From NCBI GenBank assembly GCA_965197745.1, contig CBDANS010000007.1:704001-768000 (forward strand): 64,000 bases of DNA, written 5' to 3'. Of the stretch, positions 1-54,533 are shown in pieces. The stretch comes from Opitutales bacterium (GTDB taxonomy: Bacteria > Verrucomicrobiota > Verrucomicrobiia > Opitutales > PNEW01). Both the position numbers and the translations under genes were made by a program. Position 1 is the first letter of the stretch, and each line of letters starts with the position of its first letter. The notes below the pieces were generated by a model. It saw only the letters and a list, made by a program, of their open reading frames with translations, was not told the origin of the DNA and searched no databases.

Positions 1-294
1 ATTGGGACAAATCATCAGCCAAGAATTGTTCATATTAACGACCGCGATGTCGAAGCCATTCCCGAGGGAAAGATATTACTTTTGGAAAACAAAGATGTAC
101 CAGGAATAGTAGGTATTCTGGGAACGATTCTGGGTAAAGATCGTGTTAACATTGCTAATATGTCACTGAGCCGCAATGATGTGGGAGGGAGAGCCTTGAC
201 TGTCCTGCAGTTGGATTCGGTTCCCAGCGAAGCAGCACTCAACGATTTTGAAAATTTAGATGCAATACTGAATGTGCATCTCGTTGAATTCTGA
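1..294 (+). CDS. serA: D-3-phosphoglycerate dehydrogenase, 3' end (ACT domain), truncated by the window edge
   Basis: Frame 1 is open from base 1. ENKDVPGIVGILGTILGKDRVNIANMSLSR matches the C-terminal ACT domain of long-form SerA. Confidence 0.85.
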   Translation: MGTNHQPRIVHINDRDVEAIPEGKILLLENKDVPGIVGILGTILGKDRVNIANMSLSRNDVGGRALTVLQLDSVPSEAALNDFENLDAILNVHLVEF

Positions 295-7814: not shown

Positions 7815-7870
7815 ACTTCATCCCCCCAAAAGATAGCCACATAAGGCACAAGATATACAAAAAAGAAAGT

Positions 7871-34874: not shown

Positions 34875-35037
34875 TCTTCGTCTTCGTCTGCCTCCTCGTC
34901 TTCGTCCTTATTTACCCTAATTACTAAATAATTAGGGTTATTAAATCTTAGACTATATATCATACTTCCCAACGGACGCGATCAGCCGTCGCCCCGCAAC
35001 CGCGGGGCTATGGCCGACAGGCTTTACGCGTCCCTCC
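34875..35037 (+). repeat. Family A element whose REP loop contains a 40 bp inserted module (34982-35021)
   Basis: CGGACGCGA|TCAGCCGTCGCCCCGCAACCGCGGGGCTATGGCCGACAGG|CTTTACGCGTCCCTCC. Confidence 0.92.
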
Positions 35038-35160
35038 ATATTATTTTTGTGATTTTTATGGCTATTTAATGGGAGGACCAAGACGCAGACGATGACGAAG
35101 ACGACGATTATAGGCATATCGCCATACAATGAAGCTTCATCTGCGTCCTCTTAAATATAT

Positions 35161-35360
35161 CACCCTGGAGGGGTGACACAATCATAGCCCACAGCGTAAG
35201 CTGTGGGAAATAATATACGAAAAATTAAGCCCCAGCGGGGCGACACAAATTGACAGATAATCCGGTTTGTGTCGCCCCGCTGGGGCTCTAAAATTGGGTT
35301 GCCATCACCTTACCCATTGCTTGCGCAATGGGCTAATTATGTTACGCCCCTCCGGGGCTA
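35161..35360. repeat. Family C ~200 bp imperfect palindrome with multiple hairpins, copy 1
   Basis: CACCCTGGAGGGGTG..CCCACAGCGTAAGCTGTGGG..AGCCCCAGCGGGGCGACACAAA / TTTGTGTCGCCCCGCTGGGGCT..CCCATTGCTTGCGCAATGGG..GCCCCTCCGGGGC. Confidence 0.92.
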
Positions 35361-35417
35361 ATAGAAAGCCGAAGATTATCGTATATTATCATACCCCTCT
35401 ACCTGCCGGAAAGCTGG

Positions 35418-36356
35418 CTAGCGCGACCAGATTCGCAGGGAATTCAGAAAGAAATACTCCATTGCTGCACCCTCATTAAGGTTTACTTCAAGCAGGCCTG
35501 CACATTGCTCGAGATTCGAAACCGCCTGAGCAAATTGATAAACAAGAAATTCTTGTGTTTCTTTAGCTGAATGGACGACAAAATGCCTTGTTTGTATTTC
35601 CAGTTCAGTAATCAATTGTTTTCGAATGCTTTTTTGCATCCCTACTTTATAAGCTTCTTTTTCCTCCTCGTCCAAATGGTCGGGCATGACTGATTTCTCA
35701 TTATTCCAGATGGTCTCGGTGTATGTTTTGATTATACTTTGGTAACGCGTCACTAACCCGTAAGTGGCTAATACTAATTCTGCTTTATCTTGAGCTGTTT
35801 CCACGCCATCGTTCAGTCCCTTCAACCATTTTCGATAATCTTCTATCCAGGATTGCCATTCGGGGTCTTCAATAAGGATTAATTGGGAGGGTAGGTGGAA
35901 ATTAAAACAGCGGCTGCGAATAGTATCGAGAAGGGCGTAAGGACGGGTCGATAATAAAATAATCGTTGTATTGGCGGGGGGTTCTTCCAGGGTTTTCAGG
36001 AATGCGTTGGCGGACTCACGGTTCATTCTGTCAGCATCGTAGACAAGCGCTACTTTATTATTACTTAGACGAGGCGTATGTTGAATCCGGCGATTAAGTT
36101 CCCGTGTTTCTCCTATCCTGATTTGTCTCGCTTTGTGAGAGGGTCGCAGAGTGAAAAAATCCGGATGCGCACTGGCTTGATTGGACGATTCAAGTAAGGT
36201 CGAAGCCAGCGCCAACCCGACTTCTTCAAGGGTCTCGCTATTTTTTCCATGAAGAAGGATCCCGTGCGCAAGACGACCTTTCTTGATTGAACGGTCGAGA
36301 ACCTTTACGGGACGGCTATGGCACAGTGGCTCAGATAAAGCGTCCGCTAAGCTCAT
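35418..36356 (-). CDS. holB: DNA polymerase III delta-prime subunit
   Basis: HPDF, ADRMNRESANAFLKTLEEPP, TIRSRC; directly downstream of tmk. Confidence 0.9.
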   Translation of the reverse strand: MSLADALSEPLCHSRPVKVLDRSIKKGRLAHGILLHGKNSETLEEVGLALASTLLESSNQASAHPDFFTLRPSHKARQIRIGETRELNRRIQHTPRLSNNKVALVYDADRMNRESANAFLKTLEEPPANTTIILLSTRPYALLDTIRSRCFNFHLPSQLILIEDPEWQSWIEDYRKWLKGLNDGVETAQDKAELVLATYGLVTRYQSIIKTYTETIWNNEKSVMPDHLDEEEKEAYKVGMQKSIRKQLITELEIQTRHFVVHSAKETQEFLVYQFAQAVSNLEQCAGLLEVNLNEGAAMEYFFLNSLRIWSR

Positions 36357-36972
36357 CCCAGATTATTACCTCCAGTTCTCTTGCGGGCATGGTTCCATCA
36401 ACGACCACAAATCTTTCTGGCATGGCTTTTGCGAGCATCAAGTAACCCTCCCGCACTTTGTGATAAAAATCGATATTTTCCTCTTCCATGCGATCCGGAA
36501 GGTCGGATACCCGTTTTTTAATACGTTGAAGGCCAATTTCCGCGGGCACATCAAGGACTATCGTGATATTAGGCATCAGATTGCCGATGGCAAAAGTGTT
36601 AATGACGTGAACCGGTTCTGCTGAGATCTGCCTGCCAACTCCCTGGTAGACTGTCGTGGAATCAAGAAACCGGTCACAAAGAATAATTTTCCCCAAATCC
36701 AAATTTGGGATGATTACTTCGCGCACGAGTTGTGCACGGCTCGCGGCAAAAAGTAAGAGTTCGGTTTCAGGGCAGAAATTACTGTTTGGAGATGCATGCT
36801 TGAGAAGGTGACGTATTTCTTCACCCACCTCTGTCCCTCCGGGTTCGCGCGTAACAACAACTTCATGCCCTGCATCCTGAAAGCGATCTGCGATCCGGCC
36901 GATTTGGGTGGTTTTACCACTACCTTCTGAACCTTCAAATGAAATGAGCACACCGCTTTTTGAATCTTCCAT
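36331..36972 (-). CDS. tmk: Thymidylate kinase
   Basis: FEGSEGSGKTTQ, TREPGGT, ELLLFAASRAQ, CDRFLDSTTVYQG. Confidence 0.97.
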   Translation of the reverse strand: MEDSKSGVLISFEGSEGSGKTTQIGRIADRFQDAGHEVVVTREPGGTEVGEEIRHLLKHASPNSNFCPETELLLFAASRAQLVREVIIPNLDLGKIILCDRFLDSTTVYQGVGRQISAEPVHVINTFAIGNLMPNITIVLDVPAEIGLQRIKKRVSDLPDRMEEENIDFYHKVREGYLMLAKAMPERFVVVDGTMPARELEVIIWDELSGRFI

Positions 36973-36977
36973 GGCTT

Positions 36978-38090
36978 TTAATTCCAGTTGCGAATATAAT
37001 TATCAATTTCGAATAGAGTAGGGCTAGTTGCCGTCCCCACATAATGACTGGAAAATGCCACGGCCAAAGTAAGACAAGCGAGAGGGCTCATGCCAAGGAT
37101 TAATCCCGTGGTAAATCCAGCATTAAAATGGTCACCGGCTCCTGTGGTTATTTTTGGAGTGTCGGTAGTGTGACCCTCAATCCACCATGCATCATCTTTC
37201 GTCGCACAGGTTGCAGATTCAACAGGATGAATAACGACGCAATGAATCTTTAGCTCCTTTCTGATATTGGACGCCATTTTCTTAAGTCCCTTGGCATCGG
37301 CATCGACACTTTTCTTGCCCATTACTTTATAAACACGTTGTGCTTCTTTAAAATTGAGCCCCAGACACACATTTCCATGACTGCGGAATTTAGATATGAT
37401 CGAGAGAACCACCTTGATATCGCCATCAGAGCGTTTCTCCGGATCGGAAAGATCGAAGAAAAACTGACGTCCGTCGTGAGGAGGAAGATTGGGCAGAACC
37501 TTTTCGAGCAATGATGCAAATAGGGCCGTCATGTTCGGGATCATCGTCCAGTTTAACAGGGCGATGAGATCCGCTTTAGAAAGGGCATCAAACAATGCGC
37601 CTTCGCCCAGGGTATTGACAATATTTTCATAAGTCAGTTCATCGAAGCCCGAGGTATCATTGAGCATGATTTTACCGTCCGAAAATTCCAGGGCCATCGT
37701 AATTCCATGATTACCGACAGACCCGCCTTCAGCCTGTTCGGCGAATTCTTTGAAAACCGGGTGGATGTTCGGTTTTCCTAACGCCCCAAGATATTTAACA
37801 TGCATTCCTGTAGCGAGCAATGCATTTGCCATGATTGGACCGTTTCCGCCAATCTTCTCCATTTTTTGGTATAGTTCGATGTTGGTGCTCTTACCTGCGG
37901 CATCACTTATCCGGGTTCCCAAGGCATCGATCGTTTCAATCGGCCTAAAATTTTCACCGGACCCGGTACGTTGATCTACAACCTTCATGATCTTGTCGAC
38001 AAAGCCGTCAAATCCGACGAGAGCATTTTTCGAACTGATCACACCGCTTTTTTTTTCAAGCTCTTCTAATGTTTTTTGCTTAAAATCCAT
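36978..38090 (-). CDS. PfkB family carbohydrate kinase-like protein
   Basis: GGNGPIMANAL near the N-terminus and the TTGAGDHFNAGF anion-hole motif. Confidence 0.8.
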   Translation of the reverse strand: MDFKQKTLEELEKKSGVISSKNALVGFDGFVDKIMKVVDQRTGSGENFRPIETIDALGTRISDAAGKSTNIELYQKMEKIGGNGPIMANALLATGMHVKYLGALGKPNIHPVFKEFAEQAEGGSVGNHGITMALEFSDGKIMLNDTSGFDELTYENIVNTLGEGALFDALSKADLIALLNWTMIPNMTALFASLLEKVLPNLPPHDGRQFFFDLSDPEKRSDGDIKVVLSIISKFRSHGNVCLGLNFKEAQRVYKVMGKKSVDADAKGLKKMASNIRKELKIHCVVIHPVESATCATKDDAWWIEGHTTDTPKITTGAGDHFNAGFTTGLILGMSPLACLTLAVAFSSHYVGTATSPTLFEIDNYIRNWN

Positions 38091-38269
38091 TTATCTACAA
38101 TTTTCAATTGACAATGAAAACACCACGCCAAAATACGGCAACTTAATTCCATTAGCCGGGGTTAATAACTCCTGGCAAATTGCCAATGCGCGTCAGGGGT
38201 GTTAATAGTGAGTTGTTAATCCCATACCCCTAACGCTGCGTCTTTATCGGCGTGTTCATCCAATGATTT

Positions 38270-38470
38270 CACCCCGGAGGGGTGACACAATCATAGCCCA
38301 CAGCGTAAGCTGTGGGAAATAATTAACGAAAAAAATAAGCCCCAGCGGGGCGACACAAACCGGATTGACAGTCTAATTGTGTCGCCCTTCCGGGGCTCTG
38401 AAAATGGGTGGTACATCACCATACCCATTGCTTGTGCAATGGGCTAAATATGTATCGCCCCGCTGGGGCT
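38270..38470. repeat. Family C ~200 bp palindrome, copy 2
   Basis: Aligns in direct orientation with 35161-35360; partial right arms also at about 38761-38805 and 42204-42247. Confidence 0.92.
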
Positions 38471-38510
38471 TTTTGTAATGCGGGCTCGGGCTTATTGTTA
38501 TACATTTCAG

Positions 38511-38742
38511 CTTAGTCTTCGTCTGCCTCCTCGTCTTCGTCCTCTTTTCCCTCAATTACCTAATCGCAAGTGGTATTAAATCTAAGTCAGTATTCCAAAC
38601 TTCCCAGCGGCCACGACGATGCGTGGCCCTCCAGAAAAAGAACAAATGGAGGTGGGATGGCAACGTTATGCCTGTCGGCCATAGTCCCGCCACCGCGGAA
38701 CGACGGCTGATGGCTATCTGAATCCAAGGACGAAGACGAAGA
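38511..38742 (+). repeat. Family A element (38511-38632), REP spacer, and a 40 bp module (38671-38710) inserted in a TAGCCACATAA repeat
   Basis: The REP is followed by AGAAAAAGAACAAATGGAGG, the reverse complement of the spacer at 6686-6701. Confidence 0.88.
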
Positions 38743-38894
38743 TTATAGGTAATGATCAAACCATTGTTTGCGCAATGGGCCAATTATGTATCGCTCCTCC
38801 GGGGTTGGGGCGTTATGGTATTGTTTCTTAAGATTGAACTGTTATATCATTTAATGTAACTGTTTAAGTATTATCATAACTCAATATATAGAGT

Positions 38895-39611
38895 ATGCTC
38901 ATAAATAATTTGTTTATTTCATCGGGGATATTAGGAGCGCTTCCCAATGTATTCACCTATTTCAGCCAATCGAATACAGCGGGTAAAGTCATTGTTATTG
39001 CGCTGCTCCTATTAAGTTTGCTCGCATGGACAGTCATGGTCGGTAAGTATCTCGACCTGCGACGTCTTCGTGATATAAATTTGCATTTACAGAGTGAACT
39101 TAACCGTGCTGACTCTATTTTAAAGATCGATCCTCAGTTGTATACCCGCACGCGCGGGCCCTATGGGGTACTCACTAAGAATGCTATTGATTCATTCTAT
39201 CGGTCAGAGGACAGTTGGAAAAATGATGCCGCCCGCATAAGCCATGTTGAAAACGCGCTTCAGCGATCGGTAGCGGAAGCCACTATTCTCTATGAGTCAA
39301 AAATGGTTTTACTCGGATCTATCGTCTCCGGCGCTCCTTTCCTGGGACTGCTTGGCACCGTGTGGGGGGTGATGGACGCCTTTGGCTCGATTGCTTTGAA
39401 GAGCAGCGCCAGTATTCAAATGCTCGCCCCCGGCGTCTCCGGCGCCTTACTCACCACCGTTGCTGCCCTTCTCGTTGCTATCCCATCCGTTTTCGGCTAT
39501 AATTATCTGCTCACGCAGTCGAAAATAATGGTCACCGAACTGGAGAATTTTGCCAGCTCCCTCGCCGATCACATTGAATTAGAAGCCTTTAATCGAAATG
39601 AAAGTGAGTGA
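38895..39611 (+). CDS. MotA/TolQ/ExbB proton channel protein
   Basis: APFLGLLGTVWGVM, LAPGVSGALLTT, VAIPS. Confidence 0.93.
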   Translation: MLINNLFISSGILGALPNVFTYFSQSNTAGKVIVIALLLLSLLAWTVMVGKYLDLRRLRDINLHLQSELNRADSILKIDPQLYTRTRGPYGVLTKNAIDSFYRSEDSWKNDAARISHVENALQRSVAEATILYESKMVLLGSIVSGAPFLGLLGTVWGVMDAFGSIALKSSASIQMLAPGVSGALLTTVAALLVAIPSVFGYNYLLTQSKIMVTELENFASSLADHIELEAFNRNESE

Positions 39612-39629
39612 AAAATTCAAAGAATTTCA

Positions 39630-39793
39630 ATTTTTCAGTGTTAAGTATCAGGTTTTAAGTTTTAAGCAAGTAACTGGATTTTTGATTAATGAGCAGAGTG
39701 TGAGAACAGCAAATATTCAACCTTTGACTTTCGACCTTCGACTTTCGACCTAACACCTTACACTTAACACCTTACACTTAACACCTAAAACTT
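39630..39793. repeat. Heptamer tandem arrays (TCGACYT, TAACACY) in inverted arrangement
   Basis: GTGTTAAGTATCAGGTTTTAAG on the left; CCTTTGACTTTCGACCTTCGACTTTCGACCTAACACCTTACACTTAACACCTTACACTTAACACCTAAAACTT on the right. Confidence 0.85.
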
Positions 39794-39798
39794 GCTTA

Positions 39799-40215
39799 AT
39801 GGCCCGCATATTTCATCGTAAGGATCGGCTCAGCGCGATATCGGAAATTAATATAATGCCATTGCTGGATCTCGCATTTGCCTTGCTCATTATATTTATG
39901 ATCACAGCCCCATTGCTTGAACAAAGTATTGAGTTGAACTTACCGTTTGAAGAACAGAAAACACAAACACCGGTTGAGAAAAAACAGTTCTTGACCATAT
40001 CGATTAACAATGAGGGAGATTACTATTGGGGAGATCGTGAAGTAGATGCGTTAATGCTGGGTGAATTACTTGAAGATGCTTCCGCTCAGACAGATAAACC
40101 GGTCATTAACATACGCGCTGACCAACAGCTTTCATACCAGCAGGTGATCACTGTCATCGATATGGTAAAGCAAAACAATTTAACTGAGATCAGCCTCGAT
40201 ACTCAGGTTAAATGA
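39799..40215 (+). CDS. ExbD/TolR protein
   Basis: SEINIMPLLDLAFALLIIFMITAP, IRAD...Y..V..V. Confidence 0.95.
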   Translation: MARIFHRKDRLSAISEINIMPLLDLAFALLIIFMITAPLLEQSIELNLPFEEQKTQTPVEKKQFLTISINNEGDYYWGDREVDALMLGELLEDASAQTDKPVINIRADQQLSYQQVITVIDMVKQNNLTEISLDTQVK

Positions 40216-40224
40216 AATAGGGAA

Positions 40225-40938
40225 ATGATAATTAATTCTAAAAACGCATTTTACGTTTCAGTGATACTTCATGCCTTATTTTTTCTGGTATTAATCGTGT
40301 GGACATTTCTCAGTTCACTTCGGGCTAAAGAGACCCCCTTTGTTTTTAATATGGTTGCCCCTCCGGTTAATTCATCTTCCCAGGAGAGTATTGATCGCAG
40401 TCAAAGCGAAGAATTCCCCCCCGACCCGAATAGTTCTGAGAGTGAAACATTCCAGCCGGAAATTGAAGAGATTCCGCCTTCTAAATTATCATACAAAGAA
40501 TTTGTTGAGCAGCATGGTGTTCCTGAACGTCAGAAATCGGTTACACCTACCCCAAAAAAAGTAAGGATTGAGGATATAGATACTGAAAATCTGCGGGAGG
40601 AACTGGAAAACGCGCTGGCAAGTGATCGCAGACATGAGGTGAACCTCATGTCACTAGCTGAGCAGGGAGAAATTCAGCGTTATATTTCCGCGCTTAAAAT
40701 GCAGATCAACCATGCCTGGAATAAACCATTACAACTCTCCGGCCGCCAATTTCTCACGACGGTACGCTTTGTCGTATCTCAGGATGGTGAATTATCCGGC
40801 GTTGAGATTACTGATTCGTCTAAAAATGAATTATTCGATAGTTCGGTAGTTGCGGCATTTGATAGAGTAGGGCGTGCCGACCCGCCTCCTGACAATAGTT
40901 ATTACACTTTGATTCTCACTTTTCGCATGATTGAGTAG
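40225..40938 (+). CDS. TolA/TonB family energy transducer
   Basis: SVILHA TM motif, linker, C-terminal Y....I...W..P...GE......SS.N..FD.SV..A. Confidence 0.8.
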   Translation: MIINSKNAFYVSVILHALFFLVLIVWTFLSSLRAKETPFVFNMVAPPVNSSSQESIDRSQSEEFPPDPNSSESETFQPEIEEIPPSKLSYKEFVEQHGVPERQKSVTPTPKKVRIEDIDTENLREELENALASDRRHEVNLMSLAEQGEIQRYISALKMQINHAWNKPLQLSGRQFLTTVRFVVSQDGELSGVEITDSSKNELFDSSVVAAFDRVGRADPPPDNSYYTLILTFRMIE

Positions 40939-40982
40939 TCTTTATGCCGGAGTACTGCTTATGGCTTAACCCTCGCGGGTGA

Positions 40983-41753
40983 TTGATGATTCGTTTGGCC
41001 CAAGTTAAAATATACCCCAACAAGGGTAAGTTAAAAGAAAACCAGTCCTTGTTGATGGGTGTTCTCCAGGGAGTAAGACAATTTAAACCCGATGTTGTTA
41101 TTGCTCCCGAGTGTTTCCTGGACGGTTATGTTTCAACTGAAGAATATGTGACCAAAGAGAATATTAAAGAATACGCAATTGATCCGGAAGTATCTGAATA
41201 CACGAAGGAAATAGCTGGATGGTCAAAAGACAATAATGCATGGTTTATATATGGCTGCTCCAGACTGACACAAGAAGGGGTATGCAATACCGCTCTTATT
41301 TTTAATCGGGAGGGGAAAATAGTGGGTAATTACGATAAAGTTCACTGTCAAATTCATGACCAGAAATACCTGCCGGGACAGAGTATCCCTGTTTTTCAGT
41401 CTGATTTTGGTTTATTCGGCGTATTGATTTGTGCTGATCGGAGATGGCCTGAAGCGGTGCGCTCGATAGCACTGAAAGGCGCGCGAATAATTTTCAATCC
41501 GACCTATGGGGCGCATGATGATTTAAATAAGCATATGATGCAGACACGGTCCTATGAAAGTGAGATCTTCATTGCTTTTACTCATCCCGGACAATCATTG
41601 GTGACCGGCCCTGAAGGAGAAATATTAAAAAATGAAGAATCTGAGAATGCTGAATTTACGATCACCGAGATCGATCTCAGTGATGCTGACTCCGCGCGTC
41701 AAAAAGGCCTTGCTCATTTAAAAGATCGCCGACCGGAGGTATATTTTAAGTGA
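40983..41753 (+). CDS. Carbon-nitrogen hydrolase (nitrilase family)
   Basis: Glu-Lys-Cys triad: APEC, YDKVH, LICADRRWPE. Confidence 0.9.
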   Translation: MMIRLAQVKIYPNKGKLKENQSLLMGVLQGVRQFKPDVVIAPECFLDGYVSTEEYVTKENIKEYAIDPEVSEYTKEIAGWSKDNNAWFIYGCSRLTQEGVCNTALIFNREGKIVGNYDKVHCQIHDQKYLPGQSIPVFQSDFGLFGVLICADRRWPEAVRSIALKGARIIFNPTYGAHDDLNKHMMQTRSYESEIFIAFTHPGQSLVTGPEGEILKNEESENAEFTITEIDLSDADSARQKGLAHLKDRRPEVYFK

Positions 41754-42276
41754 GTAAAAAGGAGAAAAGCAGGTATTTCTTATCCTGGAGGGACGAGGAC
41801 GAAGGCGTTCCTTCTATCTCACTATTGTCATTGCGAGGGAGGTTATCAGCCGACCGCGGCTACCGAGCGCAGCGACATCTTCCATTCCAGGCGAATAGTC
41901 ATTGTGCTTACGGATTCCAGCTTCCGCTCAGATCTTACTTATGAGGGTGCGTATCATGATTTCTAATTATAAGTAGATAATATTATTAAAACATTCCAGC
42001 GACAGCCGAGGATGAGGATGATCGTGGCCGCTTAAAACATGGGTAACTAATTGTACAATGTAGATCGGCAATTGTATTACTTAGTGAAGCCTTGCATGCA
42101 GGGCCTGTAATTATGCAATAGACATCCCCCTGGATTGCTTCGTCGTTTCACTCCTCGCAATGACTATAGAGAGTTAGTGAAAAATGGATACGAATATTAT
42201 TATCCATCACTTGCGTAATGGGCTATTTTATATCGCCCTTACGGGGTTTAGAAGAATCGAGTAAATCATCACTCAA

Positions 42277-42417
42277 TGCCTCCTCGTCTTCAATTGCCCC
42301 AATAACTTAAAATATGTTGTATTAAATCCAGTCAATTTCTCGAATTACCCAACGGTCACGGTCAGCCGTCGCCCCGCAACCGCGGGGCTATGGCTGACAA
42401 GTATCGCATTGCCCTCC
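42277..42417 (+). repeat. Degenerate family A element with a 40 bp module (42362-42401) in its REP loop
   Basis: CGGTCACGG|TCAGCCGTCGCCCCGCAACCGCGGGGCTATGGCTGACAAG|TATCGCATTGCCCTCC. Confidence 0.8.
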
Positions 42418-42532
42418 ATTTGAATAAATTCCCATCGGGAAGTGGAGGTTACTTTAAAATATACTTCTCCCGCTTAAACTCGTATACCCATATCCGCGTC
42501 ACCCTTTTTGCATCATCTGACTGCAATCAACG

Positions 42533-42562
42533 AAAAACCCACAGGATGTACCTGTGGGTTTT
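42533..42562 (-). terminator. Intrinsic terminator of hup (possibly bidirectional)
   Basis: AAAAACCCACAGG-ATGTA-CCTGTGGGTTTT, about 35 bp after the hup stop. Confidence 0.8.
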
Positions 42563-42597
42563 GTTCCCCCTGTTGGTTTTAATTATTGAAAGATTTC

Positions 42598-42873
42598 TTA
42601 AACAGAAGCTTTAAAGGCTGCACCTGGCTTGAATTTAACAGACCTGGATGCTTTTATTTTAATCTTATCTCCGGTTTGAGGATTTATACCGGTTCGAGCA
42701 GATCGTTTAGAAACAGAAAAAGTTCCGAAACCAATTAACTGTACGGATTTCTCCTTTTTTACTCCCTTTTTAATACTATCCAATACAGCGTCAACGGAAC
42801 GTTCGGCTGCAGCTTTGGAAGTATCGCCACCGAGTGATTTTTGGACTTGAGCAACTAACTCAGCTTTATTCAT
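42598..42873 (-). CDS. hup: DNA-binding protein HU
   Basis: MNKAELV, VQLIGFGTF, ARTGINPQTG, KFKPG. Confidence 0.97.
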   Translation of the reverse strand: MNKAELVAQVQKSLGGDTSKAAAERSVDAVLDSIKKGVKKEKSVQLIGFGTFSVSKRSARTGINPQTGDKIKIKASRSVKFKPGAAFKASV

Positions 42874-43156
42874 AGAATGACTCCTTTAAGAATTTATAAG
42901 ATATTCAGAATTGAACGAACAGATATGAATTGGTTTAAAATAAATTGCGTCAATAAAATTCATAACTAATTTTAATATTTTTTTAAATATTTGGATGGGG
43001 CGCTTTCCCTTTGTCCTTGCGATAAGCGGAGCGACCATGTTATTCAGTAGGTTGAATAGCTTGTTGCAGTTTAAGGATGTACTTTACAACTTTTACTTAT
43101 GTGTGCTGATAAATTTTCTTACTGAAACCTAAGACCTAAAACTTCACACAGAAAAT

Positions 43157-44101
43157 CTAAGGATTTTCTTTTTTTTGATTCTTTTTGAAAAAAACCACCG
43201 GCGTATCGTTAGGCTCGAGGGAGAGACCTGACAGATTTTCGACAGTTCGTTTTTTCAAAAGCGCATGACCAATCCAGGACTTGCCATCATAAGCTGCACT
43301 GCATAGTTGTCCGACGACACTTTCCTGATCATACAGATCGCAGGGAAGCGTGGGGGGTATAGGGATCTCACCGTGAATAGAGTAAATTTTACGTTGAACC
43401 TGGCCCATGGAATGTAAGCGCGCCATTACTTCCTGACCAAGGAAGCAGCCTTTGTCGAATGAGATGGTGTCAATCTCCAGGGCCCCTTCCTGGGGTAAGT
43501 CATCTGGCCCTATGTCATTCGGTATAGCGGGGATACATGATTTCAAACGTTCACAGTGAAGATCTTCATCGGAAGCCCAGGACACCGCCTCACTATCGCC
43601 GAACGCTTCAATTTGAGATTTAATGGCTTCAATTTGAGCGATAGGAAGAATGAGATCGTAATTGTCCTGCGTGGAGCGTCTGCCGTGTATAAGGTATTTA
43701 CCGGATAATTCACCAAAAGATCCAGTACTCGGCTCATTAAGTCCGATTTGATGGAGAAAAAATGCGGCATTTTTACCCCAACAGGAGATGGCAGCTACCG
43801 TTGAAGTGAGATCTTCTAACTCCACCTCATCAGCGATTATGTTCTCTTCCAATTTATCGAGAATCGAACGTGCTGGGCAAAAGTAGCTGAATAACAGGTA
43901 TCGGTTTTCGTCAGTCTGGAATATAAAACTATCGGCAATGGTCTTGCCTTTTCGAGTGAGCCAGAGTCCATAGATGACCGGCTGCGGATTTTCCCGTTGC
44001 AGATCATTGCTGAACTGACTTTGTAAAAAAAATGACGCATCCTCACCCGTAACCCTTATCCAGGCAGCTGGTTGATACTGATAGAAAAATGTGATGCTCA
44101 T
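43157..44101 (-). CDS. ygfZ: Folate-binding Fe-S assembly/repair protein YgfZ
   Basis: VTGEDA..FLQSQFSND and the signature KGCFLGQEVMAR. Confidence 0.9.
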   Translation of the reverse strand: MSITFFYQYQPAAWIRVTGEDASFFLQSQFSNDLQRENPQPVIYGLWLTRKGKTIADSFIFQTDENRYLLFSYFCPARSILDKLEENIIADEVELEDLTSTVAAISCWGKNAAFFLHQIGLNEPSTGSFGELSGKYLIHGRRSTQDNYDLILPIAQIEAIKSQIEAFGDSEAVSWASDEDLHCERLKSCIPAIPNDIGPDDLPQEGALEIDTISFDKGCFLGQEVMARLHSMGQVQRKIYSIHGEIPIPPTLPCDLYDQESVVGQLCSAAYDGKSWIGHALLKKRTVENLSGLSLEPNDTPVVFFKKNQKKENP

Positions 44102-44173
44102 CTAAAATAGTCAAAAGGTCAAAAAGTCAAAAAGTCAAAAAGGAATGGGTGGTCATGTATTTAATATAAAAAT

Positions 44174-44268
44174 GGAGGGCCATGCTCCGTCATGGCCGCC
44201 AAAAATAATCGGTGTCTGGCAATAATAATTTCTAACTTTATCTCGGACACAAGGGAGTGCGTCCCTCC
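44174..44268. repeat. Inverted REP-like pair with GGAG outermost
   Basis: GGAGGGCCATGCTCCGTCATGGCCG (44174-44198) and CGGACACAAGGGAGTGCGTCCCTCC (44244-44268). Confidence 0.8.
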
Positions 44269-44391
44269 AGGATAAGTCATTCCGACTTTTGACCTTAGAC
44301 TCCACCCTCACAGGGATTTTATCTTGCCCCGGGCTTGTTAAAGAATCAGGATTGATAGTTTGTCATTATATCAATTTAAGTAATTCAGACG

Positions 44392-45459
44392 ATGCCCCAG
44401 GTAACAGATATAAATGTTGTATCCACGACCCCGCTTCCCTCACCGCAATCATTTGTAAATGAGGTCGCTCGATCTGAGGAGGAAGCGGCATTTGTTGCCG
44501 ATGCCCGCAAAAAGATTCATAAGATTATTTTTGGTGGTGATAAACGACTTCTTGTCATCGTAGGCCCTTGCTCAATACACGATGTGAGTGTAGGGCTGGA
44601 ATATGCCCAACGACTGGCTGAGCTATCAAAAAGAGTTTCCGACCGGATCTATCTTGTTATGCGCGTCTACTTTGAAAAACCACGCACCACGGTTGGGTGG
44701 AAGGGGCTTATTATGGATCCGAAGATAGACGGAACCTGTGATATACCGGCCGGTCTTTTAATAGCGCGCCAATTTCTTCGGGATGTTATCAAATTGGGCA
44801 TGCCGACCGCCACGGAACTTCTCGACCCCATCACACCACAATATATCGCCGACTATATCTGTTGGTCGGCAATCGGTGCCCGTACCGCTGAATCTCAAAC
44901 CCATCGCCAGATGGCATCGGGTTTATCTATGCCCCTGGGCATTAAAAACGGGACAGGAGGCAGTTTGCAAGTAGCAGTCAATGCCATCAAGGCTGCCATC
45001 CATTCACAGACTTTTCTCGGTATTGATCAAAAGGGACAGGCTGCTGCAGTCACGACCCGAGGTAACCCTAACTGTCATATTATATTGCGTGGCAGTCAAA
45101 ATGGGACCAATTACCATCGTCAGGATATTTCGGAGACAGAGAAAATACTTGGCGACAATAAACTGATCCCCGCCATCATGGTTGACGCCAGTCATGATAA
45201 CAGCGGTAAAGATCACACAAAACAACCAGCCGTCATTCACGAGATCGTCGAGCAGATCAACGAGGGGTGCGAAACCATCATCGGCGTCATGTTAGAGAGT
45301 AATCTCAAGGGTGGAAGACAGAATATCCCCGATAAACGTGAAGAAATCATCTATGGGCAGTCTATCACCGACGCTTGTATTGATTGGGAAACAACTGAGG
45401 CGCTCATTCTTGAAACCTATTCTGCCCTGGAAAGTCGGTTTTCACCCGTTGTCTCATAA
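44392..45459 (+). CDS. DAHP synthase class I-alpha (AroF/G/H type)
   Basis: VGPCSIHD, MRVYFEKPRTTVGWKG, AIGARTAESQTHR, VDASHDNS, YGQSITDAC. Confidence 0.96.
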   Translation: MPQVTDINVVSTTPLPSPQSFVNEVARSEEEAAFVADARKKIHKIIFGGDKRLLVIVGPCSIHDVSVGLEYAQRLAELSKRVSDRIYLVMRVYFEKPRTTVGWKGLIMDPKIDGTCDIPAGLLIARQFLRDVIKLGMPTATELLDPITPQYIADYICWSAIGARTAESQTHRQMASGLSMPLGIKNGTGGSLQVAVNAIKAAIHSQTFLGIDQKGQAAAVTTRGNPNCHIILRGSQNGTNYHRQDISETEKILGDNKLIPAIMVDASHDNSGKDHTKQPAVIHEIVEQINEGCETIIGVMLESNLKGGRQNIPDKREEIIYGQSITDACIDWETTEALILETYSALESRFSPVVS

Positions 45460-45493
45460 TATTTTTATCAATCGTTAAAGTATAATATAATAG

Positions 45494-46477
45494 ATGAAAG
45501 AACCCATACGCGTTGGTGTTACTGGAGCCGCCGGACAAATCGGCTATGCTCTCCTCTATAGAATAGCTTCTGGCGCCATGTTTGGACCGGAACAACCCGT
45601 CAGTTTAAATCTTATCGAAATACCACCTGCCATGGATGCCTTGAATGGGGTTGTGATGGAACTGGCAGATTGTGCGTTCCCCCTTCTCAAGGACATTGTA
45701 CCCACTTCAGATCTCGATGAGGGTTTCAAGAATGTCAATTGGTGCCTGCTCGTAGGGAGTGTGCCGCGTAAAGCGGGAATGGAGCGCAAAGACCTGCTGG
45801 GTATTAATGGAAAGATTTTTGTCGGTCAGGGAAATGCCATTGAAAAAAATGCGGCTGGCGATGTCCGCGTGCTCGTCGTGGGCAACCCCTGCAATACCAA
45901 TTGCCTCATTGCCATGAATAATGCGCGCAGCATACCCTCCGATCACTGGTTTGCAATGACGCGTCTCGACGAAAATCGAGCTCGCTACCAGCTCGCCGAC
46001 AAAGCGGGCGTGGCTATCTCATCGGTTAGCAACATGACCATCTGGGGGAATCATTCCGCGACCCAGTACCCGGATTTTTACAATGCGAGAATCAACGGTA
46101 ACAGCGCTTTTGAAGTAATAGATGATGAAAAATGGCTTAAGGATGAATTTATCCCTATCGTGCAGCAGCGCGGAGCAGCCATTATTAAAGCGCGCGGCGC
46201 TTCATCTGCGGCTTCAGCTGCTAACGCCATTGTTGGTACTGTCATGTCGCTTACCACCCAGGGATCCGACGATGACTGGAATAGTGTGGCCGTCTGCTCG
46301 GATGGTAGCTATGGGACCCAATCAGGATTAATTACCTCTTTCCCTGTTCGCAGTGATGGGGATAAGTGGGAAATCGTCCAAGGGTTACCGGTTAATGACT
46401 ACAGTCGCACTAAAATCGACGCTTCCGTGGCTGAATTAGCTGAAGAGCATTCGATGGTTTCTGAATTATTGTCATAA
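45494..46477 (+). CDS. mdh: Malate dehydrogenase
   Basis: [47 protein letters not shown]. Confidence 0.98.
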
Positions 46478-46527
46478 TTCACAACATCGTTAGTCAAAAA
46501 TGGAGAAAATCTAAGGATTTATTTTTT

Positions 46528-46667
46528 GGAGAGCCACATGGTGCCTGTCAGCCATAGCCCCGCGGTTGCCGGTTGCGGGGCGACGGTTGATTGTGGCCGA
46601 CAGGGATATTTAATACCGACGGTGTTAATCCTACTCTATCCGCGGACGCGACGAAGCGCGTCCCTCC
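46528..46667. repeat. Inverted REP-like pair; the left REP carries the hairpin module (46544-46590, with a 7 bp internal duplication)
   Basis: GGAGAGCCACATGGTG|CCTGTCAGCCATAGCCCCGCGGTTGCCGGTTGCGGGGCGACGGTTGA|TTGTGGCCG ... CGGACGCGACGAAGCGCGTCCCTCC. Confidence 0.85.
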
Positions 46668-46725
46668 ATTAAAACGCATCACCGCATTCACGCATTTACG
46701 CGTATACCTTTTGACTAATAGACGG

Positions 46726-47571
46726 TCATCTCCCGAAGAGCATCTTCCCTAACATTTGCCAGATACTCATTCCTCCGCCTTGCTGTTGCTGTTGACCTTG
46801 GCTCTGGCTGCTTCCACTGCTGCTTCCGCTGCCTCCTCCTTGTCCGCTCTGCCCTCCACCACTCGAAGCGCTCTGTGAACTCTGACTGTTGCTCTGGTTC
46901 TGGTTTGAAGAAGAATTATTCTGCATTTGACCCATTTGACCGCCGATCTGCTGGATCTGTTGCTGGCCGGACATCGAGTTGGGTTGACCGGGCATGCCAC
47001 CTATAGGTTGACCCGAATCACTGCTTTGTTCGCCCATGACTTGAGTCCCTAGCGCTCTACTTGAGGGATCCGCCGTAATAATTTGGCCCCCTTCCATGTT
47101 TCGCGAACCTGAAGCTGCACCCATCGCTCCACCATCGATCTCGGCTACCTGCAGTCCCTCCTGATCCATATCGCTACCGCTGCCTCCAAGAGCCTGTTCA
47201 AACATATCATGATTAAATTGCCACACATAGATCTCGCTATTTTGCAGATTGGGGTTTTCGAAGGTTGCCAGATCAACAATGTCCTGGAGTTCAAAGCTTT
47301 TCTGTTCTGCTGTCAGGTAATCTTCAACGGGTCCAAAATAGTAAGTGAGATTTTCGTGACTGTACCTGATATAATAACCCTCCACATCAGGAATGTCACT
47401 GGATACATCAATGCCTGGGTACTTCTCCTGGAATTTATCAATAGATAAACGGCCACTGTCATAGATCGCCTCTATCGGTAAAATGAGAGACTTGCCGAGG
47501 AGTGCCGTTACTCCGGAGAAAATAAAAATTCCAATACCGGCTGCTCTGATTAAATTATATATTAAATCCAT
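46726..47571 (-). CDS. Hypothetical exported protein with Q/G/S-rich tail
   Basis: ATG at 47571 just after the upstream stop; signal-like N-terminus, about 100 aa globular region, low-complexity tail ending MSIWQMLGKMLFGR. Confidence 0.7.
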   Translation of the reverse strand: MDLIYNLIRAAGIGIFIFSGVTALLGKSLILPIEAIYDSGRLSIDKFQEKYPGIDVSSDIPDVEGYYIRYSHENLTYYFGPVEDYLTAEQKSFELQDIVDLATFENPNLQNSEIYVWQFNHDMFEQALGGSGSDMDQEGLQVAEIDGGAMGAASGSRNMEGGQIITADPSSRALGTQVMGEQSSDSGQPIGGMPGQPNSMSGQQQIQQIGGQMGQMQNNSSSNQNQSNSQSSQSASSGGGQSGQGGGSGSSSGSSQSQGQQQQQGGGMSIWQMLGKMLFGR

Positions 47572-47581
47572 CTGATGATTT

Positions 47582-48340
47582 TCAGATATCGGAAGGAATA
47601 GTATCGCCTTCCTCCATACCCAGTGACTGACCCTTATTTTTACCAACCATGGGTTTCTTTGGATTTGTGGCACCGGCATCAGTTTGAATACTTTCGTTGT
47701 CGGTTCCCTCCATTTTGATGATATCAATCATCTCCGAAGGATCGCCCACTGACACTTTTGCCATTACGGGTCTTCCCGATTGGCCCATCTGCCCGGGTCC
47801 GCCTTGCTGGCTTTCTTCATCCGCAGTATTTCCACCCTGCTGTTCCTCCAAGGATTCCTCACCAGTGCCTCCCATACCTTCCTGTTCTTCGGCCTCAGCG
47901 AGCGCTGACTCATCGACTTCTTCCAATTCTCCTCCTAAAGCGCCTTCAGTATCTTCTTCGATCATTTCAGATTCGTCGCCAAATCCTGATCCTTCTTCTC
48001 CTTCCTCACCTTCTTTGCCTTCCTGGTCGCCTTCACCTTGTCCTTCACCTTCGCCTTGCTTTTCACCTTCCCCTTTTTGATGCTTACTGCTTTCTTTACC
48101 TTCGACTCCCTGGTTCTGTTGCTGACGGCCTTCAGTATTCATGGGACCGGGGATACCCATTTGGGGCCTTTTCTGCAGTATTTTCGCTAAAGATGACATC
48201 GGGCTTTTTTCTGGGGGAATTTGTGAGCCGTCAAAAATGTCAGGGTCCGGTGCCGGCACAAACTGCGCCATCGCTAGTCCTGACCAGGAAAAGGCCAAGA
48301 CGATCAATAGTGTTGGCAATTTAAATGTATTTATACGCAT
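47582..48340 (-). CDS. Hypothetical secreted acidic Glu/Gly-rich protein
   Basis: Signal peptide ending AMA-Q, then a mostly low-complexity E/G/Q sequence. Confidence 0.7.
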   Translation of the reverse strand: MRINTFKLPTLLIVLAFSWSGLAMAQFVPAPDPDIFDGSQIPPEKSPMSSLAKILQKRPQMGIPGPMNTEGRQQQNQGVEGKESSKHQKGEGEKQGEGEGQGEGDQEGKEGEEGEEGSGFGDESEMIEEDTEGALGGELEEVDESALAEAEEQEGMGGTGEESLEEQQGGNTADEESQQGGPGQMGQSGRPVMAKVSVGDPSEMIDIIKMEGTDNESIQTDAGATNPKKPMVGKNKGQSLGMEEGDTIPSDI

Positions 48341-48457
48341 CGTTTATGGAATTCCTACTTATTATCTTAGAAAAGAATGAAGGACCATTAGTTCCTCAAT
48401 ATATTAAATATTAAGATTTATCTCACTGGCAAATAATAAGTACGATTCTTCGCTCAC

Positions 48458-48810
48458 ATCTTCGTCTTTGCTTGCCACGGCGTAGTCTCGCGATCGCGAG
48501 ACGAAGACGGGTCTGCCTCCACGTTCTGGTCCTTGGATTGAGATAGCCACATAAGGCACTACCGAGCGAAGTGAGATCTTCCAAAAGCACAAATCAAGAA
48601 AGTATATCGAGTCTTAATATTTTCCTAAAAAATTCCTATATATTGTATGATCATGCTCCTAAGCGGACGCGACGGAGCGCGTCCCTCCAGAAAAGGAAAA
48701 AATGGAGGGCCACGCTCCGTCGTGGCCGCTTGGAAGTTTGAGAAACTGTCTTAGATTTAATACCTATGATTTAGTAATTAAGGTAAAAGAATACACAGAC
48801 CAAGACGAAT
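48458..48810. repeat. Full composite repeat: GACGAA-type end with 41 bp module, segment B with 23 bp module, inverted REP pair (48664-48688 / 48704-48728), family A on the minus strand
   Basis: Each part aligns with copies elsewhere in the window (23710, 27091-27235, 6661-6822). Confidence 0.88.
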
Positions 48811-48830
48811 ATTAAACAAAGCCGTCCTAC

Positions 48831-50555
48831 TCACATACGCTCATTGCAGACAACTTCGATGATGGGCAAATCGCGGCCGGAGCGTACTCGCACCTCATAA
48901 ATAACTTCCTGGTACCCTTTTCGGCGTCCACGGACAATGTAATTTCCGGGTAAAAAGCTTTCGGTCTGTTGTCCCTTGAATTTACCGAGCATCTTATAAC
49001 CGGATACACTCACCCAGGTTTGGCCGTCGGAGGCAAAGACCAGTTGTGAGGGTCTGCTTTGATCTTTCAGGAGCTTTTGAAGTCCACGAGCTCTGTCATC
49101 GAGCGATAAGTAATCAGGTTTAAGAGCCATCGCCGCGTTAAAATCTCTAATCGCCTCTTGATACTCGCCACTGGCTGCTTTTTCCTCCGCGATCTCTAGA
49201 AAATTCTCAAAACGAAGAATCGCGCGAATAATCTTACCCGCCTGGACCAGACCTTCGGTCGCCTCGTCGTGGCCACTCTCTATATCGAGGACTTCCTGGT
49301 AGGCATCGCGCGCCTTGTACCAATCGTACTCATTTTCATAATAGCGCGCTCTGTCCAGAGCATCGTTTATAAGGTATTGGCGCTTTAACTCTTTTGTCTT
49401 GGCGATAGCATCTTTCGGGTCTGTGCGATCGGGGTAAACTTTATAAGCCGCCTCATAATGTTTGATAGCTTCATCCCAAGACTTATCTTCGACCGCGCTT
49501 TCCGCGTATTCTAATAATTGGTCGTATTTATTGTCCTTAATTGTTTTCGCGAGCCGGTATTTTCCCTGTTGCGCTTTAATCGACAACGGATCGATTTCAA
49601 ATGCCTCCTCGTAGGCAACAAGAGCCTCATCGAGATTCCCTTTTTTCTCCTGTATTTCGGCCTTACCGAGGAGCGGATACACCTGGTCGATGGTCTGAGC
49701 ACGAGTCAGGTTATTCGAGGCCAATTCGATGTCCGGTTGAAGCCTGAGAATATCTTCAAATAAAGTGATGGCTGTATCTTTGTCACCTGAGGACAGTGCT
49801 TTTTTCCCATTCAATTCCAATACCGACAATTTAGTGATAATCTTGTTTTCCATGGTTTTCATGGCACCAATACCGGCAGTAAAAGAATTTAATGCATCAT
49901 TGAATATCCCAGCCTCATAAGCGTTTCGTCCTTCCTCACCATATTTCACCGCTATTTCAAATTCGAAAGGGGCGAGCATGCGGATTTTTTCATTTTCTTC
50001 GATAAGAACGAGAAATTCATCGTAACGGGTAGTTGCCTGCTCCTTGAGCGCGATGAGCGCTTTAAATTCCTCGATCAGTACCTGGATACGGTCATATACT
50101 TCCATTGCCTGAGGATAAGAACCGGAATCGATATATTTATCAGCTAATTCAAAATCGTTTTCAATAACGAGAAGTTTGCGCAATAAGGTTTCATGTTCAT
50201 CGGTGAGCTTTTTTACAATCTCAAGCGCACTGTTGGCTTCAGCGCGGAATCGATCAACGCGTTCACGGCTGACGAACCGGTATTTCGTTCTTTCGGTGCC
50301 CAGGGGTGTACTATCCAAAGCTTCCTGGGTGGCTTTGGTATCGTCATCCTGTAATGTTTCTCGCAAACCGGGAATGGGGATGAATAAAATTATCGCTATG
50401 GCGATCAATAGACCCCCACCAATGAAGATGATGGTTTTTTTTGACTTTTTTTTCGGTTCTTTCTCCGGAGGAGAACCGTGAGTCTCTTCAGGGTTCCAAT
50501 GAACGATCTTGCGACGTTTTACCCTACCCATTTCCTGTTCACTATCGTCACTCAT
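48831..50555 (-). CDS. Membrane-anchored TPR protein with C-terminal PEGA-like beta domain
   Basis: Basic N-terminus and one TM, repeated A..Y..A..IDP helices, C-terminal LPGNYIVRGRRKGYQ. Confidence 0.75.
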   Translation of the reverse strand: MSDDSEQEMGRVKRRKIVHWNPEETHGSPPEKEPKKKSKKTIIFIGGGLLIAIAIILFIPIPGLRETLQDDDTKATQEALDSTPLGTERTKYRFVSRERVDRFRAEANSALEIVKKLTDEHETLLRKLLVIENDFELADKYIDSGSYPQAMEVYDRIQVLIEEFKALIALKEQATTRYDEFLVLIEENEKIRMLAPFEFEIAVKYGEEGRNAYEAGIFNDALNSFTAGIGAMKTMENKIITKLSVLELNGKKALSSGDKDTAITLFEDILRLQPDIELASNNLTRAQTIDQVYPLLGKAEIQEKKGNLDEALVAYEEAFEIDPLSIKAQQGKYRLAKTIKDNKYDQLLEYAESAVEDKSWDEAIKHYEAAYKVYPDRTDPKDAIAKTKELKRQYLINDALDRARYYENEYDWYKARDAYQEVLDIESGHDEATEGLVQAGKIIRAILRFENFLEIAEEKAASGEYQEAIRDFNAAMALKPDYLSLDDRARGLQKLLKDQSRPSQLVFASDGQTWVSVSGYKMLGKFKGQQTESFLPGNYIVRGRRKGYQEVIYEVRVRSGRDLPIIEVVCNERM

Positions 50556-50889
50556 CTCTCTATGTAATCAAATCCTCTTATTAGAAACCCGCTTACCTGA
50601 ATTATTTCAACCTAAATGTCTAATGATTATAATATTAAACAGTTTTTAGAAAACAAAGTCAAAAGGTCAATATGGGGAGAAGTGTAAATGCGACAATGTG
50701 AGAATGCGGATAGAGAGAATTCATAGGCGATCCACACTACCGATAGATTCCCCGAACCCCGACTCTTTCTAACGACTCACGCACAACTGAAACCCGACAC
50801 CTGAAACCCTATTCATTCTTCCCTGAACCCTGAACCCCGAATCTTTCGACCTTCGACCTTCGACTTTTGACGAAGGGGGACACTACGGT

Positions 50890-54174: not shown

Positions 54175-54533
54175 GACGGGCGTCGAAAAGCGAAGCGAAC
54201 TCCGCCGTTTTAGGTGTTAAGTGTTAGGTTTAAGGCTATTCAGTCGTATCTTTAAAAGTTAATCATAATAAGCCAGTTCACCAAATTATACCATATATGT
54301 TTTATTGAATTTCCTTACCTAAAACCTAACACCTAAAACTTAACACAGAAAATCCTTGGATTTTCTCCCCCTTCCCTGTCTTCCTGTAAAAATTAATTTA
54401 TCTTTTATGTGTTTCTTGCCTGCCGGCCATAGTCCCGCAACTGCGGGACGGCGACCGGTGACTTTGGAAAATCTCACTTGGCTCGGTAGTGGCTATCCTC
54501 TTCTTCTTAGACCTTCGACTTTCGACTCGCGGT

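Follow-up and report, generated by a model that had tools for sequence, protein, structure and literature searches.

A sharply bounded 40-nt hairpin module in the loops of other hairpin repeats of an Opitutales genome

A 40-nt, GC-rich hairpin module was found in 47 full-length copies in a genome of 4.45 Mb (45% GC, 7 contigs), and nearly all of the copies were located within larger hairpin repeats, in the loop. The hosts belonged to at least five unrelated repeat families (types A, B, C, D, and E), and the module is very probably a discrete unit that was inserted into them. For the explanation as a whole, that of a REP-class hairpin inserted as a unit by a hairpin-specific enzyme with local and then composite spread, the probability is put at about 0.5. 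The copies lie in the single-stranded loops of their host hairpins, most often with A before and CA after. The insertion would take place at the ssDNA level, when hairpins extrude during replication, and the enzyme would be encoded elsewhere in the genome. Copies would spread mostly locally, and composites of host REP and module would later be propagated as wholes. The genome harbours the 64-kb window (the whole stretch of DNA that was analysed), and its nearest relatives among the genomes compared, as well as the named records with the same repeat contexts, were Opitutales and other Verrucomicrobiota.

The copies were collected with blastn-short and then with an nhmmer profile from 36 seed copies, which gave 168 matches at E<=10, of which 47 covered the whole 40-nt model. 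The module can be written as N-CAGCCGTCG / YCCCGC-N4-GCGGGR / CTATGGCCG-N'-CAGG. Its layout comprised a 16-nt tip hairpin (YCCCGC-N4-GCGGGR) flanked 5' by a conserved CGTCG and 3' by CTAT, a 6-bp outer stem with a covarying closing pair, and an unpaired CAGG tail, and the hairpin contained 16 pairs in all. Forms of 33 nt and 48 nt were also present in the genome. On the opposite strand of the hairpin, an ATAG tag was present in the module, while GTAG occurred only in related short or variant copies.

Analysis of the 36 distinct 40-nt copies showed that the closing pair 1-36 was TA in 17, CG in 7, and AT in 5, and that pair 11-26 was TA in 23 and CG in 12. A C·T mismatch at 9-28 was kept in 35 of the 36 and a G·T at pair 7-30 in all 36; pair G10-C27 was present in 35/36, positions 7-9 were fixed, and both the CGTCG and the C directly after the palindrome were near-invariant. 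Pairs 3-34 and 4-33 covaried too in 46 distinct copies from other genomes. The stems thus vary between copies, as had been described, through compensatory changes, and together with the fixed non-canonical pairs this indicates that the structure of the module is under selection. Folded as DNA, the copy at 34982-35021 formed a hairpin of -13.2 kcal/mol (z -2.8), and the composite of module and type A host at 34973-35037 gave -22.3 kcal/mol (z -4.35). No Rfam family was found for the module in the window at gathering thresholds, in 10 loci of other genomes, or in the local region at E<=5, and a scan of viral contigs for the 27-nt module core gave 0 loci.

A preliminary description of the window had listed five copies of the module, and all five were found in place, those at 38671, 54419, and 46544 by direct reading. 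The copy taken as the 40-nt reference (34982..35021, + strand, exact match) fills the loop of a host REP of type A (34974..35037, + strand) with the arms GGACGCG at 34974-34980 and CGCGTCC at 35027-35033, followed by the CTCC tail. The second copy (38671..38710, - strand) has the stem variant TTCCGC/GCGGGA and sits in a type D host at ATAGCCA^CATAAC. The third (42362..42401, + strand) has 2 mismatches to the first, and its decayed REP host shows the junction G^T, while the fourth (46544..46590, - strand) is 47 nt long owing to a 7-nt duplication in the hairpin tip and lies in a decayed type B REP (GGCCACAA^CACCATGTGGCT). The fifth copy (54419..54458, - strand) has a diverged left arm (CCGGTCGCCG) and the junction AAAGTCA^CAAGAAAC, is matched by the model at positions 9-40, and is placed between two tandem paralogous ORFs of 1094 aa. 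The AACC loop was common to the three +-strand-like window copies.

Matches to the reference module (copies 1 and 3) arose by chance 0 times in 100 shuffles of the window, and the 16-nt tip gave 5 matches in the window at <=3 mismatches against 0.24 expected. Both of the empty sites named for comparison were also present, namely an empty type A host REP at 48665..48688 (+ strand, GGACGCG-ACGGAG-CGCGTCC-CTCC) and the empty type D site TAGCCACATAAGGCAC at 7834..7850 (+ strand). No duplication was seen to flank the copies, in agreement with the description. A separate family was observed in the same window, an Acido-Lenti-1-like inverted pair at 35161-35359, and this pair is a better candidate than the module for a gene-less derivative of IS200/IS605.

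Genome-wide collection of the copies with excision and a count of the junction bases, which had been proposed as a check, showed sharp boundaries. The base at -1 of the module was A in 45/47 copies, the base at +1 was C in 42/47, and the base at +2 was A in 36/47; beyond the module ends, conservation of the flanks was lost except at these three positions. When the 47 copies were excised in silico at the proposed ends, the 10+10-nt junction left by 8 of them had an exact empty counterpart elsewhere in the genome, while each of 80 other offset pairs (-4 to +4) restored 0 to 2 sites. A search for empty sites with 14+14-mers that tolerated mismatches gave no information, since a shifted boundary changes just one base. 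The claim that removal of the module restores an empty host repeat was therefore borne out exactly for those 8 copies, and for hosts A and B mostly in loop length only, while the claim of a discrete unit, free of target duplication and lying inside repeats that also exist empty, agreed with the exact filled/empty pairs.

The cleanest filled/empty case was the type C host (GCG[GC]T[AT]GGGA^CA[GC]CGCGTTCCACC), of which 27 empty copies of 24 nt were counted; filled, it measured 64 nt, the sum of 24 and 40 to the base. After removal of the 40 nt, the filled type C copies were exactly the common empty variants, and this was seen in three subvariants of the host with three different variants of the module. 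The type D host (TAGCCA^CAAAAGGCAC) had 10 empty copies genome-wide, the window site being one of them, and the type E host (GAAGATGT^CGGRCT...) had about 25 empty copies and one filled at a non-A junction. There was also a nested case, in which one module was located in the tail of another module copy at GGCCGA^CAGG. The type A host (GGACGCG...CGCGTCC-CTCC) and the type B host (GGCCACG...CGTGGCC-CTCC) had 6-nt loops when empty, with about 37 and about 81 empty copies, respectively, each locus being counted on both strands.

In hosts A and B, the loop left by excision was 6 nt long as expected, but mostly read ACAT(T/C)(G/A), a sequence absent from every empty copy. The empty loops read ACGGAG, ACAACG, or ACGACG, and just one filled A/B copy restored the exact ACAACG. 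Variants of the module correlated with host type, and this correlation, together with the difference between restored and empty loops, suggests that many copies probably spread as composites of host and module and not by repeated fresh insertion. A 30-nt core of the module was also found with other boundaries inside a separate repeat of about 100 bp (8 copies).

Copies less than 20 kb apart differed on average at 4.8 of the 40 positions, compared with 7.9 for distant pairs, a difference reached in 0 of 5000 permutations. Nearby copies had private variants in common, and the clusters included three identical copies within 13 kb and four near-identical copies within 7 kb. The genes flanking clustered copies were not paralogs, except for the tandem 1094-aa pair around the copy at 54419. 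The private variants of neighbouring copies argue for recent, local spread. A large proportion of the copies (41/47) were clearly intergenic, and the remaining six were in short, doubtful ORFs. With genes called crudely as ORFs, 13 copies were in convergent and 11 in divergent spacers, both over-represented relative to a background of 16% each, while 6 were sense and 11 antisense, and by these calls no consistent sense relative to transcription was found. Orientation relative to local GC skew showed no bias (25 against 22), the skew being weak and the origin of replication not located.

Public sequencing runs were used for comparison with near-identical strains: 10 runs from 4 studies contained the sequence, with no RNA run listed, and Logan contigs of four of them (X3-X6) were compared over positions 34900-54600 of the window. 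The contigs bridged the copy at 46544-46590 without a gap in 4/4 runs, and a contig of run X4 did so for the copy at 42362; at most repeats of this segment the contigs of the four runs broke. No precise 40-nt skip was listed in these contigs, which drop rare variants and so may miss one. Neither among the sampled strains nor between the compared relatives was a filled/empty polymorphism seen. Of the claim of an ultra-short mobile unit that targets other repeats, the parts that stood were the discreteness, the sharp boundaries, and the location inside repeats, and the strains added no filled/empty difference to it. It is rather doubtful that the module is still active today.

A search with the exact 27-nt core, one genome per species, returned 51 loci, mostly in Verrucomicrobiota (Opitutae, Chthoniobacterales, and Methylacidiphilaceae), with a few in Kiritimatiellia, Planctomycetota, and bins labelled otherwise. 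These loci were in unrelated contexts and had a covarying outer stem. Among 301 genomes sampled evenly across the phylum, 6 contained the core (<=1 mismatch), with 40 copies in the genome under study, 34 in a genome of another family of the phylum (G119), and one in each of four others. In G119 the homologous module occupied the loop of another kind of host hairpin (GCGGCGCGCT^CGGAGATCGCGCC), and in 3 of 30 loci this hairpin was also present empty beside the filled one. The composite in G119 belonged to a repeat of at least 200 bp, often at contig ends, and all copies of that genome were in this one repeat.

The sister genus was represented by three genomes (G001, G002, and G003) with about 71% identity to the genome under study in coding DNA. 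At <=3 mismatches, 8 copies of the module were counted in G001, 3 in G002, and 0 in G003, against 36 in the genome under study; the host types were those described above, and two orthologous sites were filled in both G001 and G002. Coding DNA of G001 and G002 was 80-91% identical, and their intergenic regions were fully remodelled, with different repeat mosaics. The filled and empty alleles that had been sought at orthologous intergenic regions of relatives did not emerge from regions so remodelled: of three G001 loci searched, one was aligned, with no clean allele pair.

The same observations were weighed against a mosaic of short hairpin modules, such as BIMEs and the neisserial mosaic elements, in which the module would have no transposition of its own. 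Recombination, gene conversion, and replication slippage would then make the filled and empty forms, and the module would spread as part of larger composites. About 6 copies had chimeric flanks, with the left side of one host type and the right side of another, which indicates recombination, and the loop of type C was also found to carry an insert of 24 nt (9 copies) or a 40-nt variant whose hairpin tip differed. A mosaic would also fit the module variants that track host type and neighbourhood, the restored A/B loops that differ from empty ones, the complete remodelling between G001 and G002, the single large repeat holding all G119 copies, and the lack of polymorphism seen among strains. Exchange driven by homology does not account for identical, base-exact boundaries in five or more host families with only A^CA in common, nor for a nested copy that entered a second module at this same dinucleotide, and the exact 24-nt/64-nt pairs in three host subvariants with three module variants also speak against it; a mosaic without transposition is considered fairly unlikely. 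A further reading is that of an immobile structure under selection, a protein binding or cleavage site or a structured RNA, present through ancient insertions. One form of it would be an ssDNA mark for an Ssn-type nuclease, modulating recombination or transformation in the way proposed for the NTS of Neisseria, and the role of the NTS in limiting transformation, as given in the accessible part of PMC11893778, lends it support. The exact core at 51 loci in many Verrucomicrobiota and in a small number of other PVC lineages, the covarying outer stem with invariant non-canonical pairs, the orthologous filled sites of G001 and G002, and the bridged copies that are fixed in the sampled strains are all in keeping with such a structure. 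It is unlikely given the patchy distribution (6/301), in which two distant lineages show bursts (40 and 34 copies), and the private variants of neighbouring copies, which argue for recent spread; placement relative to transcription was inconsistent, and no Rfam match was obtained.

The preliminary description had favoured movement of a non-autonomous element by an HUH Y1 enzyme (IS200/IS605 TnpA or RAYT), with recognition of the hairpin in single-stranded DNA and duplication-free placement on the 3' side of a short target. Duplication-free insertion after a conserved base (the A at -1) is what such an enzyme would produce, and the ATAG tag on the opposite strand (GTAG in variant copies) with the obligatory stem mismatch resembles E. 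coli TnpA-REP, which needs both a tetranucleotide tag and a stem mismatch according to the part of PMC3333891 consulted here. The one Y1 protein of the genome matched the model of REP-associated tyrosine transposases at E 2e-18, with PF01797 above its cut-off, but the match of 66.6 bits was under the 80-bit cut-off of the RAYT model, and the gene, on contig C6, was frameshifted after the catalytic domain relative to an intact homolog of 341 aa in G001. This was the only Y1 match of the genome and lay on a contig other than that of the window, in agreement with the statement that the window encodes no enzyme for the module. A Y1 gene flanked by the module was looked for and none was found: the module was within 1.5 kb of 0/13 Y1 loci in 6 genomes (no match better than E 1). 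The Y1 family was present in 96 of the 301 genomes of the phylum and was not found at E<=1e-20 in the module-rich G119. In place of distinct left and right ends, the module has a single hairpin, and it shows no strand bias. The HUH/Y1 attribution was rejected on the frameshifted gene, the 13 loci without a module, and the balanced strands, and movement of this kind is judged quite improbable.

For the hairpin-specific enzyme of the favoured reading, a small single-domain GIY-YIG nuclease of the Ssn type was ranked as the most likely partner among those analysed, and it is put forward as a tentative candidate. The Neisseria NTS (CGTCATTCCCGCGMAVGCGGGAATCYRG), which is dRS3 or CGTC-1, has the form CGTC-AT-TCCCGC-N4-GCGGGA-AT-C. 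A GIY-YIG nuclease of 94 aa binds it in single-stranded form and makes its cut a few bases upstream; binding depends critically on the C that follows the palindrome and cleavage on the preceding bases, and the NTS is described as limiting transformation (PMC11893778, accessible part). The core of the module, CGTCG-YCCCGC-N4-GCGGGR-C, has NTS-like features, and the 5' end of the module is 5 nt upstream of CGTC. The genome under study contained 7 small GIY-YIG ORFs (PF01541 matches), and the three that were translated were 82, 97, and 89 aa long. A hairpin of the type TCCCGC-N4-GCGGGA was within 500 bp of 3 of the 7 genes, compared with 2.1% of random windows (binomial P ~3e-4). The 82-aa gene at C5:56611-56856 had inverted module-like hairpins on both sides with the ...GGCAGG tail kept, and in another genome (G279) the sole match to the module core was about 25 bp upstream of a small GIY-YIG gene.

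The GIY-YIG subtype was present in 5 of the 6 module-holding genomes of the phylum sample; it was also present in 113/301 genomes, compared with 6/301 for the module core, and being far commoner than the module, its presence predicts little. No full 40-nt module copy directly flanked a GIY-YIG gene in the genome under study, and no module was found beside the GIY-YIG gene of G119. Matches of the small proteins in NCBIfam and PDB were to generic GIY-YIG or UPF0213 only. The published search sequence for Ssn-related motifs, or SRM (HGTCWYN(0-2)YYVSBRHN(0-5)WNVSBRGN(0-2)RNCYNB), was found in 0/47 module copies (2/47 with W relaxed to N) and was not enriched in the genome, with 16 matches against 19 in a reversed control.

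A GIY-YIG nuclease is not known to have strand-transfer activity. With the candidate Ssn-type nuclease as partner, joining would need host repair or ligation, since a nuclease by itself does not account for it. In the portion of the 2025 Ssn study available here, cleavage is demonstrated and mobility is not (PMC11893778). That hairpins of the NTS/SRM type are true mobile DNA, with a 40-nt single-hairpin unit that enters ssDNA loops to the exact base and free of duplication and whose 5' end is set by an Ssn-type cut 5 nt upstream of CGTC, is an unlikely possibility; if true, it would mean a transposition route by a nuclease of about 90 aa without a transposase fold, and the unit would be among the smallest mobile units known.

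The spread of REP-class and other very small repeats is a long-standing question, and the CGTC/NTS class is without a known mobilising activity. The exact filled/empty pairs, the 40-nt unit, the A^CA target, the nesting, the local variants, and the candidate enzymes form an unusually clean natural data set for it. For Opitutales-like Verrucomicrobiota, the module also offers a practical marker of how intergenic regions are remodelled. Should it be no more than a selected hairpin that recombines, it would amount to an ordinary REP family.

Comparison with known systems placed the module closest to described REP and NTS elements. It resembles NTS/dRS3 in the upstream CGTC, the TCCCGC/GCGGGA palindrome, the free 4-nt loop, the C right after the palindrome, the tens of dispersed, clustered intergenic copies, and the GIY-YIG genes for 82-97 aa, some of them hairpin-flanked. 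It differs in its stem of 6-7 bp without AT pairs, the extra covarying outer stem, the CAGG tail, and its location within the loops of other repeats, for which exact empty sites exist, an arrangement that the accessible part of PMC11893778 does not mention. The survey of Di Nocera et al. (2013, PMC3733652), in the portion available, sorts REPs into GTAG- and CGTC-tagged superfamilies, describes the CGTC REPs as being without a dedicated transposase, and reports tagged REPs in the PVC superphylum, with Opitutus terrae rich in them; the scan of one genome per species gave no record of Opitutus terrae for the 27-nt core. CGTC families 1-4 have an unpaired CGTC, a stem of 8-9 bp starting with AT pairs, a loop of 4-5 nt, and a CCA tail (PMC3733652, same portion). 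The tag and loop length of the module fit these families, whereas its stem of 6-7 bp starts from G-C or T-A and its CAGG tail follows the outer stem; unlike either superfamily, its one hairpin is flanked by both CGTC-like and CTAT (GTAG-like) tags, partly paired.

The stem mismatch and, less exactly, the tetranucleotide tag (ATAG in the module, with GTAG only in related short copies) recall REP/RAYT systems, including E. coli TnpA-REP, whose substrate is ssDNA and whose enzyme is in single copy elsewhere in the genome (PMC3333891 and PMC3116915, accessible parts). Here, by contrast, no Y1 gene was flanked by the module and the only one was frameshifted. By inspection, the copies were mostly singlets in other hairpins, unlike the inverted REP pairs of REPINs. 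Elements of the IS200/IS605 group and their gene-less derivatives are recognised at a hairpin in ssDNA, require two subterminal hairpins of different kinds, and are biased towards the lagging strand. The module is like them in duplication-free insertion 3' of a short target, and unlike them in its single hairpin and its lack of orientation bias.

The cyanobacterial SDR1-8 are reportedly 21-27 nt long and nested in copies of themselves, and an RNA intermediate is said to have been proposed for them (Elhai et al., 2008). They are likewise very small modules inserted precisely and without duplication in other repeats or palindromes, in a different phylum and at a length other than 40 nt. SDR5 is placed between the third and fourth bases of HIP1 (PMC4390886, accessible part), and the GTAG-23 REPs of Thermomicrobium roseum were inserted within small palindromes that also exist in hundreds of empty copies (PMC3733652, same portion), a nested arrangement like that of the module. 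With these precedents, the nested, duplication-free arrangement itself is not new. The novelty claimed earlier is reduced accordingly, given a core that resembles the CGTC and GTAG REPs and the NTS, and what stands of it is that literature searches on REPs of Verrucomicrobia, on nested or duplication-free palindromic repeats, and on follow-ups of Ssn gave no description of the module. Judged by its sequence, the module would be best filed as a REP-class hairpin related to the described CGTC/NTS and GTAG families but outside them.

The loop of the type C hairpin repeat, which holds the 40-nt module in its filled form, was also occupied, in 9 copies, by another mini-insert, 24 nt long (CGATTCGACTGAGCTCGTCGCAGG), for example at C7:518636 and C6:1382985 on contigs of the bacterium's own genome outside the window. 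The terminal bases of this insert were CAGG, as in the 40-nt module, and one type C copy near C6:786393 carried the 24-nt insert and the module together. A long palindromic repeat (TGTCATTGCGAGGA...TCCTCGCAATGACA) was likewise abundant in the own genome, at about 75 copies. Its top 10-mers were GTCATTGCGA and TCGCAATGAC, and its copies often had the same TCCCGC-N4-GCGGGA tip hairpin as the module; one such copy (C7:483646) lay 95 bp from a GIY-YIG gene. Two related REP families were distributed genome-wide, GGACGCG-N6-CGCGTCC (about 37 short copies; window example 48665-48688) and GGCCACG-N6-CGTGGCC (about 81 short copies). They were set apart by compensatory changes, while the loops ACGGAG, ACAACG, and ACGACG were common to both, and both were followed by CTCC (GGAG on the opposite strand).

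At locus L020 of an Uhrbacteria-labelled MAG, a module copy (151-177) began exactly where a tRNA gene (match at 182-265, minus strand) has its CCA end, and the first bases of the module may overlap the tRNA 3' end. In the window, module copy 5 lay in the spacer between two tandem 1094-aa ORFs on the minus strand (50890-54174 and 54534-57818), which showed 87% protein identity to each other. In the module-rich genome G119, the two copies of a direct repeat, each about 125 bp long (1379-1505 and 1745-1872 of locus L122, contig C9), lay on either side of the GIY-YIG gene, adjoining an apparent tRNA or tmRNA 3' end; the arrangement looks like an inserted cassette.

A frameshifted RAYT-like Y1 gene was located at C6:162763-163781 (L001) of the own genome. 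Because its protein was 91% identical to the homolog in the sister-genus genome G001, against about 71% identity for the surrounding coding DNA, and G001 had several copies, the sequences suggest recent transfer or an active element. Rfam analysis of the window showed an inverted pair of Acido-Lenti-1 matches, at 35161-35207 (minus strand) and 35313-35359 (plus strand), which scored 39.6 bits and 32.8 bits, respectively, against a gathering score of 37, and enclosed about 100 bp. The whole unit, of about 215 bp, had repeat copies in the own genome, G001, and the second sister-genus genome, G002. In G001, fragments of the unit flanked an IS200-like Y1 gene on either side; it may thus have derived from a Y1 insertion sequence that lost its gene, and the Acido-Lenti-1 "RNA motif" may be the terminal hairpin of such a Y1-derived unit.
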